Of a stretch of 64,000 nucleotides of DNA, positions 20,938 through 54,927 are shown one piece after another. Numbering within the stretch: the first letter of the stretch is position 1; every line of letters starts with the position of its first letter. The notes below the pieces were generated by a model. It worked only from the letters and a program-made list of their open reading frames with translations, had not been told where the DNA came from and searched no databases. Position numbers and translations under genes: made by a program. The DNA is taken from NCBI GenBank assembly GCA_965267575.1, contig OZ254086.1, positions 2,240,001 to 2,304,000 of the forward strand. Reading direction: 5' to 3'. The DNA comes from Calditrichales bacterium (GTDB lineage Bacteria > Calditrichota > Calditrichia > Calditrichales > J004).

Positions 20938-21530
20938 TTTACCATGAAGAGCATGAAGGACATGAAGTGTTTAGAGATTGAAGAGCAAAAAGTGTCAATT
21001 ATTCTTCTGCTCCTTAATCCTTCAAGGTGAGTAAATATGAAAAGAGAATTTAGTGCTTTATCAAATAAGGTAATTGGCTGCGCAATTGAGGTGCATCGTA
21101 ATTTGGGGCCGGGCTTATTGGAGAGCACGTATCATCAGTGTTTGGCGCATGAGCTAAGAAATAGCAAAATAGAATATAAGTCTGAATACCAGCTGCCGGT
21201 TTTATACAAGGGACAGAAAATTGATTGCGGCTATCGCGTTGATCTGCTTATAGAAAGTGAATTGATTATTGAAATTAAGAGCGTAGAAAAGATTTTGCCC
21301 ATTCACGAGGCGCAACTTTTAACTTACATGAAGCTGGCAAAAATAAAACAGGGATTCTTAGTAAACTTCAACGTAAAACGTCTTACGAACGGCCTAAGAA
21401 GTTTCGTCCTATAAAAACCTTAAATATGAAGAGCATAAAGAACCCAAAGGTTTAACTAAGTGGAGAAGCAAGGAAGCCAAGGTGATAAAAACTTCCTATT
21501 CTTCATGCCCTTCATGTCCTTCATGGTGAA
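20938..21530. repeat. 30-bp inverted arms of 9-mer (CATGAAGnn) repeats flanking the GxxExxY gene
   Basis: 20938-20967 matches the reverse complement of 21501-21530 at 26/30 positions; degenerate inner arms at 21004-21030 and 21424-21449. Confidence 0.9.
21037..21414 (+). CDS. GxxExxY protein (PD-(D/E)xK nuclease-like fold)
   Basis: LGPGLLESTY, YRVDLLIE, IEIKS, QLLTYMKL, GFLVNFN; lower GC than the hem genes. Confidence 0.93.
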   Translation: MKREFSALSNKVIGCAIEVHRNLGPGLLESTYHQCLAHELRNSKIEYKSEYQLPVLYKGQKIDCGYRVDLLIESELIIEIKSVEKILPIHEAQLLTYMKLAKIKQGFLVNFNVKRLTNGLRSFVL

Positions 21531-24254: not shown

Positions 24255-24300
24255 GACTTAAGATTAAAGATGAAAGATTAAAAGCGAAGAGTTTGGAAGG

Positions 24301-24324
24301 GCCCGCCGGTTGGCGGGCTTTTTT
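24301..24324 (+). terminator. Rho-independent terminator of the hem operon
   Basis: GCCCGCC-GGTT-GGCGGGC hairpin followed by TTTTTT. Confidence 0.85.
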
Positions 24325-24351
24325 ATTAAGGAATTATTCTAGTTGGTTCGG

Positions 24352-25050
24352 CTAACAAATAACATCAGGCCAGCTTATTATGCCGGCAAGATATTCATTA
24401 ATTACTATTCTAATTTCAACACCAGAATTCTGTGATGCCAAATACCTATATACGCCAGGTTGAACGACAATCCATCCGTGATCATTAATATCAATTCCGG
24501 TAAATAATCGGGTCATAGCTCTGCTTCCTACTTCAGGAAACAAGCTTGATTCGGGCTGCGCTTCAAATTCAAATCTTGTTTTTTCATCTAAAGCACACAA
24601 TGGAAAAAGCGAAACGGAATCAGGTTTTATATAAACCGGTAAATGCAACTCGAACAAAGAATGGCCCTTTGCAAGTTTCGTTATGACGTTTTGTATTCGT
24701 TCCGTTTCAGGTGTGAAAATTATTTCGTTGTTTTCTTTTATTATAGAATTCTGAATCCTTGCACGAAGGGATCCTTTCTTTCTCAGAATCCTTGCTATCC
24801 TTTTTCTCATTATCAAATCTGGATCAGTGGAACCTGATAAAACGCATGCCATTAAACAAGCCATATACTCTTCATCAGCCGAAAAACTGTTATTGCATTC
24901 TACGCATGCAGGCACCACCGGCAAATTGTCCGGGTAGGGTTGGTCAAGCAAAATCTTAGACGGACAATGATCTCTTGTTCCCGTCTTTCCGCCGCAAAAA
25001 GCGCAGAAGCCGATTTCTCTTTGATCACCGTAACTTCTAATTTGCTTCAT
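24352..25050 (-). CDS. HNH endonuclease-domain protein
   Basis: CAFCG..TRDHCPSK...VVPACVECNN (CxxC / DH / CxxCN). Confidence 0.8.
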   Translation of the reverse strand: MKQIRSYGDQREIGFCAFCGGKTGTRDHCPSKILLDQPYPDNLPVVPACVECNNSFSADEEYMACLMACVLSGSTDPDLIMRKRIARILRKKGSLRARIQNSIIKENNEIIFTPETERIQNVITKLAKGHSLFELHLPVYIKPDSVSLFPLCALDEKTRFEFEAQPESSLFPEVGSRAMTRLFTGIDINDHGWIVVQPGVYRYLASQNSGVEIRIVINEYLAGIISWPDVIC

Positions 25051-25486
25051 TTTTGTTCAGCAAAAATTTGGCTACAATAAGGCTGGATAAGGTTGACAGT
25101 GTGCGTTTTCTAATAGTCTCGTTTTTTAATTCGCATTGCCACACGGTTAATACCTTCCAACCGGCTTTTTTCAGTTCGGTTGATTTAACCTTGTCTCGCT
25201 CAACGGTTTTGGAGATTTTCTCTTTCCAGAATTTTGTGTTTGTGGCGGGCAATGAGGCCTGAGGACATCCTCTATGTCCATGCCAGAAACAACCGTGTAC
25301 AAAAATTACTGTTTTATATTTGGGCAAAACAATATCCGGTTTACCGGGTAGCTCCTTAACGTTTTTTCTAAATCTGAAGCCTTCCGCAAACAAGTAAGAA
25401 CGAACCAATATTTCAGGCGTTGTTTCCTGCCCATTAATATTTGACATAATTTTAGATCGCTTATGCTTAGAATATATATCTGTCAT
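25037..25486 (-). CDS. vsr: Very short patch repair endonuclease
   Basis: D..SKHKRSKIMS, LPGKPDIV, FVHGCFWHGH, VWQCE. Confidence 0.95.
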   Translation of the reverse strand: MTDIYSKHKRSKIMSNINGQETTPEILVRSYLFAEGFRFRKNVKELPGKPDIVLPKYKTVIFVHGCFWHGHRGCPQASLPATNTKFWKEKISKTVERDKVKSTELKKAGWKVLTVWQCELKNETIRKRTLSTLSSLIVAKFLLNKNEAN

Positions 25487-26742
25487 CTAATAATTGACAA
25501 TCCTAATCTAGCAGTATGAGATGCCATTTTTTGTAATACATCGGCAAAAAGCTTTTCTTTAACCCTAAATAGTAATTTATACTTGTTTTCATCATTTAGT
25601 TCTTCTTTAGAAATAAATCCCAGTATTCTAAAATCGAAAACTATTATTTGAGGTTCGTTTTTGCCCTCTAAGAAAATAGGCCACAATTCTTTATAGAAGC
25701 TATCTGGCAACTGTCTTTTTGAATTGCAAGTATGATAATACCCTGCAAGGACTCTAGGACTTTTAGATTTATTGTTCGCATAATCGCAAGGCGGTGTCAT
25801 CTCAATTATAATAGGTGAGGCGCCCTCGGGAAGCTCACCATATCTAAAAGAGTTCTCTTTTTGCATTACTTCATATACGTTTCCAGGAATAACTTTATTT
25901 TGCGATATATGCACTTGATCAACTAATAAACTTGAATTTATTTTTGCATAAATCTTATATAATTCTGCAGAAACCGTTTTTTTTGTCTCTGCTTTTATTG
26001 ATTTATTTTCGTTGTCTAAATACTCTATTTCACTCGTTTTTGTAAATAAAGTGAAATTTTCCGAGATGGAATTAATATTATATACTAACATGTCATTGAA
26101 TGCTTTTATTGCATCAATACTTAAAGGATAATCGTCAAGCTCTTGCAAACTAATTCCAGTATAATTCTGAGCCAACTTAAATAACAAAAACTCTAAATTC
26201 TTATCCTGTTTTGTGTAATCAGGAACTAGGTCAAATATCGAAGAAATAGCATTGTCACGACCTTGATTTACTAACCTACTCCAGCTAATAAAAAAATGTG
26301 CTGCGATACTCTCTCTTAATTCATTATCTAGATCATTTAACAGATTATCGTAGCCATCCCTTAAGTATTTTTGCTTATCTAAACCACAAATAAAGAGCGG
26401 TAGCGAATAGGTATCTTTATCAAGTTGAAGTTTTTCTTTAATTGTATCAATATGATGCTGGTGGTTAGTCCAAACAACAAGGCCATATGTGCCAAAGTTT
26501 TTCCCAACAATATTTTTAAAAATTTTTCTTATTTCTGCAATATGACCTTTCAATTCCGTTGCAGTATTACTCAGATATATATCCAAAAAAATAATTTTAC
26601 GATTTTTCAGCTCCTTTACGCAATCTTCAGGCAGCTTATGCTTTACCCAAATGTCATTTTCTTCAAGCAGTTCTTTTAACTTCTGAATTTCTTCAGGCTT
26701 ATCATCAATAATTAAAGCGCTATCAATAAATTCTAATACCAT
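25483..26742 (-). CDS. Receiver (REC)-domain protein with uncharacterised C-terminal domain
   Basis: ALIIDD, IIFLDIYL (Asp acceptor), VVWT, DK; C-terminal EMTPPCDY motif. Confidence 0.75.
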   Translation of the reverse strand: MVLEFIDSALIIDDKPEEIQKLKELLEENDIWVKHKLPEDCVKELKNRKIIFLDIYLSNTATELKGHIAEIRKIFKNIVGKNFGTYGLVVWTNHQHHIDTIKEKLQLDKDTYSLPLFICGLDKQKYLRDGYDNLLNDLDNELRESIAAHFFISWSRLVNQGRDNAISSIFDLVPDYTKQDKNLEFLLFKLAQNYTGISLQELDDYPLSIDAIKAFNDMLVYNINSISENFTLFTKTSEIEYLDNENKSIKAETKKTVSAELYKIYAKINSSLLVDQVHISQNKVIPGNVYEVMQKENSFRYGELPEGASPIIIEMTPPCDYANNKSKSPRVLAGYYHTCNSKRQLPDSFYKELWPIFLEGKNEPQIIVFDFRILGFISKEELNDENKYKLLFRVKEKLFADVLQKMASHTARLGLSIIR

Positions 26743-26751
26743 ATCTTTTTC

Positions 26752-28830
26752 TTATTTTGGAAAACACAAAGCAATAATTGCTTGAGTTATTTTTTTACTT
26801 TTTACGAGTTCAGAAAACTCAATATCGTATTCGTCAATAAAAAGTAGATTACCCTTCATACTTTTCATCATTTCATTGGCTATATGTAAGCCTAGACCCG
26901 AGCCTATATTGTGAGGCTTGCCCGTGATAAAGGGATTAATTGCTATCTCGATAGGAATAGTAAAGCCCGGTCCGTTGTCTGAGACGACAATAGAATTATA
27001 TCCTTTTATTTGGTCTGTAATAAATACGGAGATCCTTTTGTTCATCGTCTGTGAATAGCTTAGCCAATATATTGAATTATCTAAGAGATTTGTTAAAACT
27101 GATATTGATTCAGATTCAGCAAACATCGCAAAAAGCTTGTTTTCTTGGTAGTTGGTGACGATTTCAATTTCGTGGTCTTTGAATCGAAATTCATAATTTT
27201 CAAGCGCGATTTTGACTACCTTGGACAATTGGCCTTTTTGAATGTGAGATTTTTTTATCATTGCTGAATAACCGCGTATTATTTTTTCCAACATTAAAGA
27301 AATGCTGATAGCCTTATTTAAATCGCGGTTATTAATACTACCGGTTAATTGCGATATTAGTTTTTCTATTTCATGAATAACAACACTTAGGTTCAAACCA
27401 GCATTTGCACTTTTTATTAAAATCTCTTTTACATCTTTATATTGAGAATTGATATTTGCTAAGTATTTTAATAATTGATTTTTTATTTCTATATCTTCTA
27501 TTTTTGTTTCAACTATTTCGATAGCTTCGTTTAAGTCTGATAAGACCGGCTCCGATACCTTATGCTTTTTATAAAGAATCGTTAAGCGTTCTTTATCATA
27601 ATTTCGTTCTCTTACGAATAAGTGTAATGCGTATCTTACTGCAGTTGCAAAAGCCGTATAGGCAATATCTTCGACAAAACCTTCCCTATTAGTTTTTTCT
27701 TTGAGGTCAGTGCTTTTTTCTCGTTTTAATTTAACTGCTCCAATAATAATATTATTACTTACATTTCCACCTAGTTTTCCAACTCTTTTTATGTCAATTT
27801 CTAGCCAATCATTGTCCGGCTCACCATAGTTATAGACTCTTACTCCATCTCTATAAACCCTTATACCGCCGTTTTCTCGTAAATATGTATTTATGGTCTT
27901 TTTTTCACCAGTGACATAGTTGAAAATTTCCGGTGCTCTATCAAAAATCATAATATTAAATTCAACAGGACCAATCTTAAATTTATTAAGGTTAATGCGT
28001 TTGCCTTCTTCATCAACGATCTCTAAATCGATGTCCTTAAAATCCTCAAGATTTTTTATTCTTCCTGATTCTATTTTAGATAATGAAGTCCAGGGTCGAA
28101 ATTCATATTTGATATTAATTATTTGATTGCCGTCAAGTGTACACTTACCAAAATATAATGCTGCGCTTTTTATTTCTTCGAAAGCAGGTAATCCTTCAAA
28201 TAAATCGTCTCTATTACTATTAATAATAACCTTAAAATTATCGTTGCTTTCATCAAAAGGACTATTTAATGAAGTTAAAGCTCTATATGTATTTCTTAAT
28301 TGTCTCTTATCCCAAACAGTTTTTAAATCTTCTATTATTATTTTTGTACCTGTATTATTGGCAAATTCTACATCATCATTCTTCTCAATGTTAATTTTAA
28401 AATCGTTTATATCTTTTATATAATCGAGCATTTTCCAGTCTATGTCTAATTGAACTCCCGGTGAGTCCTGCATTTTGCTAACTAGTTTTATCTTATTTCC
28501 GAGCTTATGAACCCCTAAACGTCCAATACCCTTTTCCCCTAGCGGTATTCTCTTGCAAGTATTCGGCCTAATGTTTTTGTATTTATTATCAGTTCCAATG
28601 GTTAACCAGTGCTCTTCAATAATATTACTGTTCATTCCCAAGCCATTGTCTTTTACAATTATTTTATTAAGAATGCCATTATCACCTACTATGAAGTTAA
28701 CCTTACACTCATTAGCACAAGCATCATATGCGTTTTTAACAAGTTCCAGCAATGCGATGCTTTCACTCTTTATTAAATCTTCGCCCAAATGAGATAATAT
28801 TCTAGGAGATATGGAAAATGGTTTTTTCAT
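26752..28830 (-). CDS. MORC/MutL-like GHKL ATPase fused to a histidine kinase module
   Basis: N-terminal ELVKNAYDA, DNGLGM, GEKGIGRLG, GTKI, TNREGF; C-terminal VIHEI (H-box), NLLDNS, DNGPG, PFITGK, GSGLGL. Confidence 0.88.
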   Translation of the reverse strand: MKKPFSISPRILSHLGEDLIKSESIALLELVKNAYDACANECKVNFIVGDNGILNKIIVKDNGLGMNSNIIEEHWLTIGTDNKYKNIRPNTCKRIPLGEKGIGRLGVHKLGNKIKLVSKMQDSPGVQLDIDWKMLDYIKDINDFKINIEKNDDVEFANNTGTKIIIEDLKTVWDKRQLRNTYRALTSLNSPFDESNDNFKVIINSNRDDLFEGLPAFEEIKSAALYFGKCTLDGNQIINIKYEFRPWTSLSKIESGRIKNLEDFKDIDLEIVDEEGKRINLNKFKIGPVEFNIMIFDRAPEIFNYVTGEKKTINTYLRENGGIRVYRDGVRVYNYGEPDNDWLEIDIKRVGKLGGNVSNNIIIGAVKLKREKSTDLKEKTNREGFVEDIAYTAFATAVRYALHLFVRERNYDKERLTILYKKHKVSEPVLSDLNEAIEIVETKIEDIEIKNQLLKYLANINSQYKDVKEILIKSANAGLNLSVVIHEIEKLISQLTGSINNRDLNKAISISLMLEKIIRGYSAMIKKSHIQKGQLSKVVKIALENYEFRFKDHEIEIVTNYQENKLFAMFAESESISVLTNLLDNSIYWLSYSQTMNKRISVFITDQIKGYNSIVVSDNGPGFTIPIEIAINPFITGKPHNIGSGLGLHIANEMMKSMKGNLLFIDEYDIEFSELVKSKKITQAIIALCFPK

Positions 28831-29897
28831 CACGTTTCCGTTTGATCTATTATCGCTTTGCCAACTCTCTTGGCATATTCGGGAGGAACCGCATTGCCAA
28901 TTATCTTAGCCGTTATCGCAATGCTTTTTGCTTTAAAAATATAGCTTTTAGGAAAAGTCTGAAGCGTTGCTCCCTCGCGTAATGATAATGCTCTGTTTTC
29001 TTCTGGATGACCGAAACGCCCGTTTGACAAACTGTGAAACTTAGTCGTTATTGTTGGGGCGGGCTTGTCCCAATATATTCTTCCATATGTATCTACAAAA
29101 GAATTAGAATCTCTATTCTTATATGTTTCTAACTGTAAGTCAGTGTTTGCCCAATCTGATCTTGTACCGCCATCTTTTTTTGTAGAACAAATTCTCTTCA
29201 GGTTTTTTTCGCTTAAGCCCGATGCAGTGTGCATAAAGTTAGTATAATCTTTGTGACCGCAAGATATTTTGGGGAATCCATTTCTTAAACCTATAAAATC
29301 TCTTACAACAGGAGGGTGGCCAATATCCTCTTTAGGAAAAATTCCTTTTTTAATAACTCTTGATGCTATTAATGTAAATCTTTTTCTAATCTGAGGTACG
29401 CCAAACTTATTTAGATTGACTATTTTATGTTCTACTTTAAAATCCATATTTTTAAGCGCTTTAATAAATAGTTCAATGCCGCTTTCGGATCGCCTAGTCC
29501 AGATTCCTGGAACGTTTTCAACAACCACATAGCCTGGTTTATAATGGCTTATAAAACGCAGAAAATCAAATAGCAGATTTTTGGATTTGCTTGAATTATC
29601 TTTGTTGGTATTTAATTTTGTCCAAAATTGACAAGGACTACAGCCAACAAAAATCATACTATCATCATTAATACTAATTTCGACGTAATCAGTTAAACTT
29701 TTTTCGCTTAGTCTTGTAATGTCGGCGTGAATAAATTTTGCCTGTTTTAGGTTTGCCTCATATGTATCTCTGCATGTTATATCAATATCAAGTCCAGCAA
29801 TTACATCAACACCGGCCTGCTGTAATCCAAAACTCATTCCGCCACCTGAACAGAAGAAGTCGATTGCCTTGATTTTATTACTGCGATTCAAAAACAT
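28830..29897 (-). CDS. dcm: DNA (cytosine-5)-methyltransferase
   Basis: DFFCSGGG (motif I), SPCQ (IV), ENVP (VI), PQIRKR (VIII), IGNAVPP (X). Confidence 0.95.
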   Translation of the reverse strand: MFLNRSNKIKAIDFFCSGGGMSFGLQQAGVDVIAGLDIDITCRDTYEANLKQAKFIHADITRLSEKSLTDYVEISINDDSMIFVGCSPCQFWTKLNTNKDNSSKSKNLLFDFLRFISHYKPGYVVVENVPGIWTRRSESGIELFIKALKNMDFKVEHKIVNLNKFGVPQIRKRFTLIASRVIKKGIFPKEDIGHPPVVRDFIGLRNGFPKISCGHKDYTNFMHTASGLSEKNLKRICSTKKDGGTRSDWANTDLQLETYKNRDSNSFVDTYGRIYWDKPAPTITTKFHSLSNGRFGHPEENRALSLREGATLQTFPKSYIFKAKSIAITAKIIGNAVPPEYAKRVGKAIIDQTET

Positions 29898-30059
29898 ATT
29901 TTTAACTGGTAAGAGTTTGCGTAAATCTTAATGGGCAAATGATAGATGAATTTAGTATTCAGCGCAATACTGTTGTAAGCTTTTTCCTTTGACAAAATAA
30001 TATTTCTTAAAGTAACACTTATCTTTTTAACCCTATTAAAGCACTGCCCAAATCAGCTA

Positions 30060-30551
30060 TCATTCTCCCTTCTTCTCCACCGAGCTGGCGTGGTCTTTTA
30101 TCACGTACCAGGTGCCGTTTTCCTTGCGCAGGGCGTAGCTCACGCTCATGCGGTTGAAATAGGGTTTGCCGTGGCGCTCGGGCTCGCGGTACAAAATTTC
30201 CGTGGTGGCCAGGGCCAGCTCCTGCCCGACTTCCAGTTTCAGTATCTGCCAGTCAAAACTCCAGCCCGTTTCTTTGAACCAGACTTCGTGCATCTCCACA
30301 AAACTTTGCACGTCGCCGCTGATTTCTTGTCCGGGCAAAATAAGCTCCATCTCGCCGCTGGGGGAAAGGGTATTTTTCAGCGTGGGCAAATCCTTACTGG
30401 CGATGGCGCGCAGGTGTGTTTCCAGCACCAGCCGGGCTTCGGTGGTAGCGCGTTCCTTGTTGGGCGGGGCCGTGCAGGCGCAAAGCAGAAGCGTGGCGGC
30501 AAAAAGAAAGGCCAAAGCTGTAGGTTGAAGCCGGGGATATGTCATTGTCAT
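30060..30551 (-). CDS. NTF2/SnoaL-like (DUF4440-type) lipoprotein
   Basis: Signal peptide with LCAC lipobox; C-terminal RKENGTWYVIKDHAS. Confidence 0.7.
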   Translation of the reverse strand: MTMTYPRLQPTALAFLFAATLLLCACTAPPNKERATTEARLVLETHLRAIASKDLPTLKNTLSPSGEMELILPGQEISGDVQSFVEMHEVWFKETGWSFDWQILKLEVGQELALATTEILYREPERHGKPYFNRMSVSYALRKENGTWYVIKDHASSVEKKGE

Positions 30552-30712
30552 TACTCGCGTTAGTAAGCATCAATAATAGGAGATATTTCAATAACGGGCA
30601 ATGGTGGATTTTTGAACGGTCTAAAAATATTTAAGAGAATACAACCTGGATAGTATTCGATCGGATGGTATACGACGAAGCTAACCTATGGCGTTGGCCC
30701 CGTTTTGAAATT

Positions 30713-30883
30713 TTACTTTTCAGCTTTTCTGCTTTTATGCATTGAGGGGTGTAGAGGCTTTTTCTTTTTAAGATACTCAGAGAGCTCTTTGTAAGACATA
30801 TTCTTTATATCGTCACTGATTTTTTCCCTGATGTCTCGAAGCTGCCGGATGACAGATTGTTTAGCTTTTGGCTTAGTCTTCAT
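30713..30883 (-). CDS. Putative antitoxin, 56 aa (absent from ORF track)
   Basis: Translates to MKTKPKAKQSVIRQLRDIREKISDDIKNMSYKELSEYLKKKKPLHPSMHKSRKAEK; start overlaps the PIN gene end. Confidence 0.65.
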   Translation of the reverse strand: MKTKPKAKQSVIRQLRDIREKISDDIKNMSYKELSEYLKKKKPLHPSMHKSRKAEK

Positions 30884-31337
30884 ATTCCAGTATTTCCCTT
30901 GGTGTTCTTATTTCAAGTATTTGATGTCCATGCCGGTAATTAACAGAATTGTATCCTCTGATTCGATTTATGTTCACAATGTGTTTAAAATTCCAGCTCA
31001 CAAGAATATCCGCATTATTCAATGTCGCCAACGCAATGTGAAGACAATCCGCACGGCTCGCTTTCCCCACAACCTTTTCGTTAATATAGCTGTCAGCTAA
31101 TTCGATCGCGTCTTTTGTTAGCTCGACCACTTCTACATATTTCGCGGGAATTTCGAGTACCAGTTCTTTTACTTGCTCTGGTGCCCGGTTTAGTTCATCA
31201 TCTGTTAACCGCGAATAAAGTAGTCGATATTGCCCCTTCTTAATTCGGTCAAATAATAACCTGGTCCATAATTCAAATTCCGGATCAAATTGTCCTCCGA
31301 ATACTGATGTGTCGAGATATAAAAGATCCATTTTCAC
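30873..31337 (-). CDS. PIN-domain (VapC-like) toxin
   Basis: LYLDTSV, E, DCLHIALA, VSWNFKHIVN. Confidence 0.85.
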   Translation of the reverse strand: MKMDLLYLDTSVFGGQFDPEFELWTRLLFDRIKKGQYRLLYSRLTDDELNRAPEQVKELVLEIPAKYVEVVELTKDAIELADSYINEKVVGKASRADCLHIALATLNNADILVSWNFKHIVNINRIRGYNSVNYRHGHQILEIRTPREILEYED

Positions 31338-31606
31338 GTTAGCTCAAATTGGGACACATAGATTTCAATCCAGCGAGATATTAGTTAATTCATAACGCAA
31401 AACCCGGGCAAAAGCAATCACAAAATAGAATATACTTCTCCGATTCACAAGAGCTGATCATAGCATTTGTCATTTAAATAGATTTGATCGTTGGACTGAA
31501 TTGTTCACAGAATGCGTTACGTTTTCAACATATATAATATCATTTTGCAAAAATTAGTAAATCCTATAATTTGTCCTCCAAACATGATTATACGGAAGAT
31601 GCTAAT

Positions 31607-54733: not shown

Positions 54734-54854
54734 TTCAAGTTCTTATAAAGTGATTAATTAATTTTCGATATTTTAAAACTCGGCTAGGTAGGAAGCAAAA
54801 AAGTGTGCCGTTTTAATTTTGAAAAAGCAGAAACATAAAATCTAAATTAAAAAG

Positions 54855-54927
54855 AGCCATCTGGCGGATTCGAACCGCCGACCTGCTCATTACGAGTGAG
54901 CTGCTCTACCAGCTGAGCTAAGATGGC
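54855..54927 (-). tRNA. tRNA-Thr(CGT), CCA not encoded
   Basis: GCCATCTTAGCTCAGCTGGTAGAGCAGCTCACT-CGT-AATGAGCAGGTCGGCGGTTCGAATCCGCCAGATGGCT folds as a cloverleaf. Confidence 0.95.

Follow-up and report, generated by a model that had tools for sequence, protein, structure and literature searches.

A candidate restriction-modification-like module with a predicted kinase–receiver relay and a proposed MazF-fold output domain in a Calditrichales bacterium

What takes the place of a restriction endonuclease in a restriction-modification (RM)-like operon that joins a DNA methylase to a kinase is the question raised by an island of five coupled minus-strand genes in the genome of a Calditrichales bacterium (GenBank GCA_965267575.1). 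The island lies at 24352–29897 of a stretch of 64,000 nucleotides (contig OZ254086.1, positions 2,240,001–2,304,000 of the forward strand), which is called the window here and supplies all coordinates. The answer favoured here, with a probability of about 45% for the reading as a whole, is that the island is a horizontally acquired RM-like module with a phosphorelay in the place of the endonuclease, and that this relay would gate a toxin-like output. The gene order and its conservation, the catalytic and phospho-acceptor motifs, the folds and the homologies from which this answer starts are observations. The original prediction, made from the DNA letters and the list of open reading frames (ORFs), had reported no classical type II restriction enzyme, and none of the five proteins matches a restriction-endonuclease family in Pfam, NCBIfam or PADLOC, save for a partial match to NF050001 that is described below. 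The genes and domains under discussion are as follows.

28830–29897, minus strand: C5 cytosine DNA methyltransferase of 355 amino acids, first gene of the module (PF00145, TIGR00675, MTase_II).
26752–28833, minus strand: fusion of a GHKL (MutL/MORC-type) ATPase, a middle domain, a dimerization and histidine phosphotransfer (DHp) region and a kinase ATPase, 693 amino acids (PF13589, PF02518).
28423–28761, minus strand: N-terminal GHKL ATPase domain of the fusion, residues 25–137 (PF13589), the proposed DNA-facing sensor.
27373–27375, minus strand: codon of H487, predicted autophosphorylation site (VIHEIEKL), from alignment conservation.
26839–27102, minus strand: C-terminal kinase-type HATPase_c domain of the fusion, residues 578–665 (PF02518).
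25483–26742, minus strand: receiver-domain protein of 419 amino acids with a predicted MazF/CcdB-fold C-terminal domain (AlphaFold model).
26344–26742, minus strand: receiver (CheY-like) domain, residues 1–133, with the D54 codon at 26581–26583.
25486–25896, minus strand: C-terminal TPPCD domain, about residues 283–419, with the motif codons at 25783–25797, the proposed output or effector.
25037–25486, minus strand: Vsr very-short-patch repair endonuclease of 149 amino acids (PF03852, TIGR00632).
24352–25050, minus strand: HNH-like protein of 232 amino acids with the pattern CxxC...DH...CxxCN, accessory and outside the conserved core.

The kinase fusion begins either at a GTG at 28833, which gives 693 amino acids, or at an ATG at 28830, which gives the 692 amino acids of the database form. 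Its two GHKL domains had been assigned in the original prediction to the MutL/MORC type and the kinase type, and both assignments hold: HATPase_c_3 (PF13589) matches residues 25–137 (E = 1.9e-18) and HATPase_c (PF02518) matches residues 578–665 (7.6e-14), while a profile search of the Protein Data Bank (PDB) pairs residues 21–81 with MutL and PMS2 (5e-4 to 5e-3) and residues 508–664 with HK853-type kinases (1e-9). More than 4,541 relatives were found, and the precomputed Pfam annotation of the 120 homologues listed contains PF02518 and PF13589 only. In an alignment of 22 relatives (21 full-length rows and one fragment), E30, N34, D37, D62, G64, G66, G99, G102 and G104 of the first Bergerat fold, including its DxGxG and GxxGxG motifs, are invariant in all 22 rows, as are R328, E338, D342, E379, K380, R383 and E384 of the middle domain (approximately residues 208–430). 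The H-box that had been read as VIHEI is conserved as H487-E488 in 21/21 full-length rows and immediately precedes the segment alignable with histidine kinases of known structure. The kinase boxes N, G1, F and G2 (N582, N586, D619, G621, F635, G644, G646, and G648) are likewise conserved in 21/21 rows. The window kinase matches neither Pfam DHp family, HisKA or HEF_HK (PF19191, no match at E ≤ 0.1). PADLOC returns one weak match, to the candidate model PDC-S26 (E = 1.6e-4), and no nuclease fold is recognised in the protein by Pfam, NCBIfam, PADLOC or the PDB profile search. The BbrUII/HgiDII model NF050001 matches residues 7–207 (1.6e-25) with 89.7 bits against a cut-off of 550, the alignment covering only positions 4–201 of the 659 in the model.

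The 419-amino-acid protein encoded directly downstream has 450 homologues, all unnamed, and 1,452 representative clusters at E ≤ 1e-3, and it belongs to no family in Pfam, NCBIfam or PADLOC, the last being a search that had been suggested with the original prediction. Its AlphaFold model (predicted local distance difference test, pLDDT, 88.4) has a (beta/alpha)5 layout in residues 1–133, with the signature residues at the ends of beta1, beta3, beta4, and beta5, and the best Foldseek matches include the receivers of AmiR, EutV, NarL, StyR, ComE, and PorX (E = 4e-4 to 5e-3) in a list that also holds flavodoxins and some unrelated large proteins. In the alignment of 37 relatives, D13, D54, K123 and T/S92 are present in 37/37 rows and D14 in 34/37, which agrees with the acidic pair and acceptor Asp recognised originally, and the receiver fold is confirmed at the level of the model. 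Between the receiver and the C-terminal domain, the model contains a four-helix region (residues 134–226) and a beta-hairpin (240–250), and neither the window protein nor the 37 relatives nor the PDB profile search yielded a helix-turn-helix (HTH) or winged-helix family. Response_reg_2 (PF19192) is absent from the window protein, from the 37 relatives (E ≤ 1) and from 63 distant representatives (E ≤ 1e-3); searches of solved structures with the sequence or its profile gave chance-level rows only, and a phage collection contained no homologue. The longer relatives of this protein (530–556 amino acids) have a receiver-like N-terminus, a TPxCD domain and a much longer middle region, and they match the family profile only from about position 127 on. 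The annotated start of the receiver-like protein on a Burkholderia glumae plasmid (L047:7031–8224) falls at the acceptor-Asp strand, and the gene probably begins farther upstream, within the gap of 168 nt that follows the kinase gene.

That kinase and receiver carry every sequence feature required for a His-Asp phosphorelay is supported by these alignments, and as far as sequence and fold show, the pair appears competent for His-Asp transfer. A complex prediction for kinase residues 430–693 with receiver residues 1–133 scored 0.00 against a mark of 0.32, which gives no verdict and is used neither way.

The most conserved part of the receiver protein is its C-terminal domain and not the helical region. 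Thirteen residues are invariant in 37/37 rows (N269, P286, G287, Y290, P318, C319, D320, G334, D401, Q404, K405, R412, and G414), among them the P318-C319-D320 of the TPPCD motif that had been picked out in the original prediction. A separate model of residues 228–419 (pLDDT 86.9) was compared by Foldseek, as had also been proposed, and the highest-ranking PDB matches listed are, almost without exception, toxins of the MazF, Kid or PemK type (best E = 3.9e-3, target-normalised template modelling score, TM, 0.55–0.65). In BFVD, a collection of viral predicted structures, a PemK/MazF toxin again comes first (TM 0.72, E = 1.7e-3) and several PemK-like proteins are among the next matches, so that the MazF/PemK fold, an SH3-like barrel with a C-terminal helix, is seen in both searches. 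A reading of the acidic and lysine residues of this domain as a PD-(D/E)xK nuclease was rejected since both structure searches gave only the MazF-type barrel. At the sequence level, PemK (PF02452) matches 0/37 relatives at E ≤ 1, and hhalign of the C-terminal profile with Escherichia coli MazF gives a probability of 0.14. The domain thus resembles the MazF/PemK/Kid toxins of the CcdB/MazF superfamily in fold and not in sequence, and it differs from them in being fused behind a receiver and in having no antitoxin gene. A hidden Markov model (HMM) of the domain scores 21.2 bits against the protein partnered with the kinase on a Campylobacter plasmid and 13.4 bits against its counterpart on a Hymenobacter plasmid, compared with maxima of 7.1 bits in 1,000 shuffles and 5.5 bits in 244 unrelated ORFs taken from these loci. 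The N-termini of these two partners are not detected by the receiver HMM of the window family, and the Campylobacter partner is nearer to canonical Response_reg (2.8e-5, 24.7 bits against a cut-off of 30.2). By these profile scores the output domain is common to different receiver subtypes, as would be expected of the functional end of a relay. Short matches of 122–196 amino acids in the representative search look like gene fragments and were not counted as stand-alone output domains. What appears to be new in the module, going by the structural models, is this C-terminal MazF-fold output domain, a fold not noted before; a full-text literature search found no description of a receiver–MazF-fold protein in such modules.

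A scan of one genome per species gave 46 loci encoding a relative of the 419-amino-acid protein, and their genomic context was examined by tblastn with the five window proteins. In 39/46 loci (39/40 assessable) the receiver gene is immediately preceded by the kinase gene; six of the other seven end at contig ends and one (L042) is a receiver-gene remnant. This arrangement is far beyond chance. A Dcm homologue is encoded in 30/46 loci and in 28 of them (28/35 assessable) comes right before the kinase gene; a Vsr homologue is encoded in 31/46 and abuts the module in 23. The hosts include Bacteroidota, Melioribacteraceae, Campylobacter, Treponema, and Aggregatibacter, and relatives with a different gene order occur on plasmids of Burkholderia, Agrobacterium, Hymenobacter and Campylobacter. 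Kinase homologues are present in 96 plasmid records, of which 58 come from predicted conjugative plasmids and 43 from Campylobacter plasmids of approximately 50–75 kb. One of the plasmids, from C. armoricus, shows the order kinase, "response regulator" and convergent Dcm. In three of the 39 loci (L011, L020, and L021), the kinase gene is split into two ORFs or matches the query in part, for which a frameshift, a stop codon or a fault in the assembly could be responsible, and the module may be decaying there. Error-prone DNA polymerase genes of the DnaE2 type adjoin the pair in two unrelated loci, the B. glumae plasmid (L047) and L018, and the latter also has an ImuB-like gene beside the pair.

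The surroundings of the module are variable. Pfam was run on 88 of the 186 ORFs within 3.3 kb, picked by same strand or direct adjacency, and these include defence-island genes such as AbiV, AbiH, MutH, AIPR, MvaI/BcnI, HpaII and type III res, with HNH_2 in two loci, HNH+DUF3427 in two loci and toxin-antitoxin (TA) and abortive infection (Abi) genes nearby in some. Pairs of McrB-like (MrcB_N + AAA_5) and McrC-like (DUF2357 + PDDEXK_7) genes are located behind the receiver gene in five loci (L023, L024, L025, L033, and L036). In these five, a methylcytosine-dependent restriction system adjoins a cytosine methylase. Among the 88 flanking ORFs, no nuclease regularly accompanies the module, and several loci have housekeeping neighbours only; since the four genes stand between housekeeping genes alone in those loci, any effector must be inside the module.

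The methylase and Vsr are recognised by standard models. The methylase matches PF00145 (1.6e-53), TIGR00675 (2.7e-41) and the PADLOC model MTase_II (1.7e-84), and shares 43% identity along its entire length with its counterpart in a comparable E. coli UTI89 module, against 24–26% with two other plasmid Dcm enzymes; Vsr matches PF03852 (2.8e-34) and TIGR00632 (5.8e-43). The HNH call of the original prediction fared less evenly. In its favour, C16, C19, D27, H28, C49, C52, and N53 (CxxC...DH...CxxCN) are invariant in 22/22 rows, and one of the 243 homologues, 56% identical, bears the UniRef name "HNH endonuclease 5 domain-containing protein". Against it, the 232-amino-acid protein has no Pfam match at E ≤ 0.1 and HNH_5 is matched by only 1/22 relatives (E = 0.031); PADLOC and NCBIfam return nothing for it, the PDB profile and solved-structure searches gave chance-level rows only, and the phage collection contained no homologue. 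Its label is accordingly the weak point of the observation, with weak support from family models. Moreover, this type of gene is found in 0/46 related loci, and the original claim of a unit of five genes has to be given up. Because the HNH type is absent and no nuclease is a regular companion, the conserved unit is methylase, kinase and receiver, usually with Vsr, a core of three to four genes. Homologues of the HNH-like protein on seven plasmids have Dcm and Vsr genes within 6 kb in 4/7 contexts, and on alphaproteobacterial plasmids they stand beside Dcm, Vsr and GHKL-ATPase genes; Paracoccus and Celeribacter plasmids, which share one such element, encode a Dcm and, behind it, a GHKL ATPase that is homologous to the window kinase in its N-terminus. 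The gene is read as that of a lineage-specific accessory nuclease (predicted) of 5-methylcytosine-related islands and not as part of the core.

How far the module has been described before can be judged from several known systems. HgiDII is paired with a C5 methylase, and BbrUII/HgiDII and the window fusion have homologous N-terminal GHKL ATPase domains (NF050001, 1.6e-25), the fusion having a histidine kinase in place of their unassigned C-terminal part. The GHKL domain of R.HgiDII was recognised in 2008, and its nuclease domain was never assigned in the passages found (Orlowski and Bujnicki, 2008; PMC2441816). The same source notes the REBASE putative enzyme R.EcoUTORF4938P, with a GHKL N-terminus and a kinase-like C-terminus, and places GHKL-plus-kinase proteins beside methylases, as the original prediction had said of MORC-like ATPases fused to kinases in RM-like operons (PMC2441816). 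GHKL ATPase genes near cytosine methylases and Vsr were also reported in RM operons by Iyer, Abhiman and Aravind (2008; PMC2292703). Those MORC/paraMORC operons centre on helicases and restriction-fold nucleases, "histidine kinase" occurring only within the name GHKL, and the passages found mention neither the kinase fusion nor the receiver partner that the window has (PMC2292703).

The closest published relatives are the modules of Bellieny-Rabelo et al. (2021; PMC8011034), who defined HEF_HK (PF19191) and Response_reg_2 (PF19192) with a gene linkage of 91.6%. In these modules, kinases with HATPase_c_3, HEF_HK and HATPase_c stand beside receiver-like proteins, for which no other known domain was reported, with C5 methylases upstream, Vsr directly downstream and HNH_2 as the commonest nearby nuclease (PMC8011034). 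Vsr directly behind the receiver-like gene is the commonest layout both there and in the window family (PMC8011034). The E. coli UTI89 example (NC_007946.1, 4836000–4841692) matches PF19191 (1.5e-25) and PF19192 (1.8e-29), and both models are therefore present in the library used. It resembles the window in the order of methylase, GHKL/kinase fusion and receiver-like protein and in the HATPase_c_3 ... HATPase_c architecture of a homologous kinase (hhalign probability 99.7, E = 1.2e-26, residues 9–469 of the window kinase; phmmer 5.6e-31 in three segments). It differs in that its kinase has 986 amino acids and PF19191, compared with 693 and no PF19191 match in the window, and its partner has 555 amino acids and PF19192, compared with 419 and no PF19192 match. 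Homology of the two receiver proteins was sought and failed (hhalign probability 0.28; 0 phmmer matches among 500 stored proteins), the domain HMMs gave negative bit scores, and only PxCD and a terminal SR[IL]GL resemble each other by eye. On these comparisons the window holds a sister family of the published HEF_HK/Response_reg_2 modules. The idea of a methylase–kinase–receiver module is not new, since such neighbourhoods were described in 2008 (PMC2441816) and 2021 (PMC8011034) and a tested analogue followed in 2025; the receiver protein of the island forms a family of its own.

That analogue is Ambrosia of Pseudomonas, which consists of the XRE regulator AbrR, the N6-adenine methylase AbrA, the HATPase/kinase AbrB, the REC (receiver) protein AbrC and the type IV HNH protein AbrD (bioRxiv 10.1101/2025.09.30.679545). 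In experiments it protects against phage with no visible host toxicity, every gene is needed, the REC mutation D60A abolishes defence, reporters at the methylase and HNH positions give no signal before infection, and a winged helix is attributed to AbrC (bioRxiv 10.1101/2025.09.30.679545). By type of domain, Ambrosia and the window island both combine in five genes a methylase, a HATPase/kinase, an HNH or HNH-like protein and a REC with an acceptor Asp, shown by experiment to be essential in Ambrosia; an N6-adenine methylase, XRE and a winged-helix REC without Vsr in Ambrosia contrast with a C5 methylase, Vsr and a predicted MazF-fold output without XRE in the window (bioRxiv 10.1101/2025.09.30.679545). 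It is the only experimentally tested system of such logic found in the literature search. Detocs reportedly combines a hybrid kinase, a buffer receiver and an ATP-nucleosidase effector and has no methylase, Vsr or GHKL/MORC sensor. It is like the reading favoured here in its His-Asp relay, its role in phage defence and its receiver-domain protein bearing the effector (bioRxiv 10.1101/2023.01.24.525353). No exact match to a characterised system emerged from these comparisons, in that the receiver protein and the methylase type differ from those in the described systems, as far as the passages found describe them.

What the proteins do, what the signal is and which way control runs are all inferred from this material, in a sequence of steps. 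The C5 methylase would mark host DNA constantly; standing methylation is suggested because Vsr is co-conserved with the module and has, to our knowledge, no other known job than the repair of deaminated 5-methylcytosine. The 693-amino-acid protein would face DNA through its N-terminal GHKL ATPase and the conserved middle domain, both of which are common to the REBASE R.EcoUTORF4938P family by hhalign. Unmodified or foreign DNA, or another infection cue, would lead the kinase half to autophosphorylate H487, and the phosphoryl group would pass to D54 of the receiver protein. Phosphorylation may then release or assemble the MazF/CcdB-fold TPPCD output, which is most likely toxin-like and would cause growth arrest or attack nucleic acids. 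The HNH-like gene would encode an add-on nuclease and tends to accompany Dcm/Vsr/GHKL islands. In a sharper version, regarded as doubtful, a MORC/MutL-like clamp reads methylation itself and His-to-Asp transfer to a novel MazF/CcdB-fold domain (TPxCD ... DxxQK ... RxG) makes it a phosphorylation-gated toxin that triggers abortive infection on unmethylated DNA. If that version is right, the exchange of the output domain behind receiver subtypes, as on the Campylobacter and Hymenobacter plasmids, could make it the defining effector of a large family, a suggestion held with the same reserve. The original prediction of a defence module with a His-Asp relay is partly supported: the phosphorelay features, the linkage to C5 methylase and Vsr across phyla and the Ambrosia analogue speak for it (bioRxiv 10.1101/2025.09.30.679545), whereas the five-gene extent did not survive.

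Several results weigh against the favoured reading. The receiver likeness is sub-threshold by sequence, with PF00072 (Response_reg) matching 5/37 relatives at E ≤ 1 (best E = 0.019) and the window protein not at all at E ≤ 0.1. The MazF likeness of the output is one of fold only and not of family, with modest Foldseek E-values of approximately 2e-3 to 4e-3. The pair lacks an adjacent Dcm homologue in 5/35 assessable loci (L007, L018, L019, L035, and L038) and is thus not strictly dependent on its own methylase. Methylation-based discrimination of self from non-self, as proposed in the original prediction, would be one possible input and has no parallel in Ambrosia, where phage remained sensitive after growth on the methylase by itself and infection switched the genes on, and whose authors favour transcriptional control over such discrimination (bioRxiv 10.1101/2025.09.30.679545). 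The likeness to AbrB and AbrC is itself a comparison of domain descriptions and not of sequences.

A transcriptional switch on the Ambrosia model, in which the phosphorylated receiver protein binds DNA and induces the methylase, the HNH-like gene or a neighbouring nuclease so that damage follows, is unlikely to be the better account. The reporters that stay silent until infection and the winged helix of AbrC (bioRxiv 10.1101/2025.09.30.679545) are joined on its side by the four-helix region and beta-hairpin between the two domains of the window protein, by whole-protein Foldseek matches that include the receiver-plus-HTH regulators NarL, StyR, and EvgA, and by HNH-family or McrBC-like genes behind the receiver gene in nine loci (L003, L030, L027, L037, L023, L024, L025, L033, and L036). 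Yet the superpositions past the receiver domain are poor (root-mean-square deviation 12–15 Å), the absence of an HTH or winged-helix family extends from the window protein to its 37 relatives, conservation peaks in the MazF-fold domain and not in the helices, many loci have no adjoining nuclease to control, and the co-conservation of Vsr favours standing over induced methylation.

An improbable alternative assigns the cutting to the 693-amino-acid protein, either as a restriction enzyme, as in REBASE, or as the ATPase partner of a nuclease such as the HNH-like protein (compare MutL with MutH or Vsr), with the kinase and receiver only tuning it. The match of its N-terminal 200 residues to the BbrUII/HgiDII model, the unassigned nuclease domain of R.HgiDII (PMC2441816), the invariant charged residues of a middle domain common to the UTI89 kinase, the logic of a GHKL protein with a standalone nuclease (Iyer et al., 2008; PMC2292703) and the HNH-like homologues beside Dcm and GHKL-ATPase genes on Paracoccus and Celeribacter plasmids are all consistent with it. 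However, the NF050001 match ends at position 201/659 and falls far below its cut-off, so that the unassigned part of BbrUII/HgiDII is not shared; the lack of a recognised nuclease fold and the 0/46 count for the HNH type also speak against it, and the strong conservation of the receiver protein's C-terminal domain would be left unexplained. Least likely of the alternatives is an addiction or housekeeping module, whose relay would watch host methylation and lead to post-segregational killing or to the tuning of repair or methylation; the toxin-like output fold, the many plasmid-borne and predicted conjugative kinase homologues and the TA and Abi genes near some loci would suit it, but the neighbours (McrBC-like, AbiV, AbiH, AIPR, and type II and III restriction genes) are typical of defence islands, and the tested analogue Ambrosia blocks phage with no visible host toxicity (bioRxiv 10.1101/2025.09.30.679545).

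The family offers a clean test bed for a question that dates from 2008, namely how the GHKL/MORC-type ATPases of RM operons convert DNA sensing into restriction, with a soluble kinase that has a probable DNA input, one phospho-acceptor and a compact output domain. MORC ATPases act in eukaryotic silencing as well. If the output is a phosphorylation-gated toxin, epigenetic self-marking would be tied to abortive infection by a route yet to be demonstrated, and defence catalogues would gain a new effector domain, as PADLOC 2.0.0 and Pfam miss the receiver protein. Were the relay to do no more than regulate transcription, the family would be an ordinary relative of Ambrosia.

The layout of the island agrees with the original description of an AT-rich, coupled operon of five ORFs just past the hem terminator in its coordinates, junctions, G+C content and hairpin. 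The methylase TGA and the kinase ATG overlap by one base (TGATG), 9 nt separate the kinase and receiver genes, and overlaps of 4 nt (ATGA) and 14 nt join the receiver gene to vsr and vsr to the HNH-like gene. The G+C content is 0.29–0.40 within 24500–29999, whereas the flanks have 0.47–0.61 (hem genes) and 0.55 (30000–30499); the HNH-like gene (0.40–0.48) is above the rest of the island. Mobility of the module is suggested because the island is AT-rich and the kinase homologue is carried by 96 plasmid records. Two features lie at the ends of the island.

24300–24325, no strand assigned: GC-rich hairpin with a T-run 3' of hemL, at the convergent end of the island, read directly from the sequence.
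29898–30059, minus strand: AT-rich intergenic region of 162 nt 5' of the methylase gene, presumed from its sequence to be the promoter region.

The hairpin was not among the calls of an automated terminator scan, which found 2 terminators in the island compared with 3.9 by chance. Sigma-70-like promoter matches over the island are at chance level (25 compared with 22.5 ± 4.4) and establish no promoter, no convincing flanking repeats were found at the borders, and the module strand holds no further ORF of at least 60 amino acids within the island and no XRE-sized ORF. The upstream neighbour is a G+C-rich SnoaL-like gene (30060–30551). In the rest of the window, the only RNA gene found is a tRNA-Thr (CGT) at 54854–54927 on the minus strand, with no rRNA found. 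A PD-(D/E)XK_3 protein of 125 amino acids (21037–21414, plus strand; PF13366, 1.8e-42) is encoded between the protoporphyrinogen oxidase and hemB genes in a patch with a G+C content of 0.38, and looks like a small insertion. Just past the island, beyond the SnoaL-like gene, a PIN-domain protein of 154 amino acids (30873–31337, minus strand; PF01850, 1.5e-4) is encoded inside a low-G+C stretch (30500–31500) and may be a VapC-type toxin.

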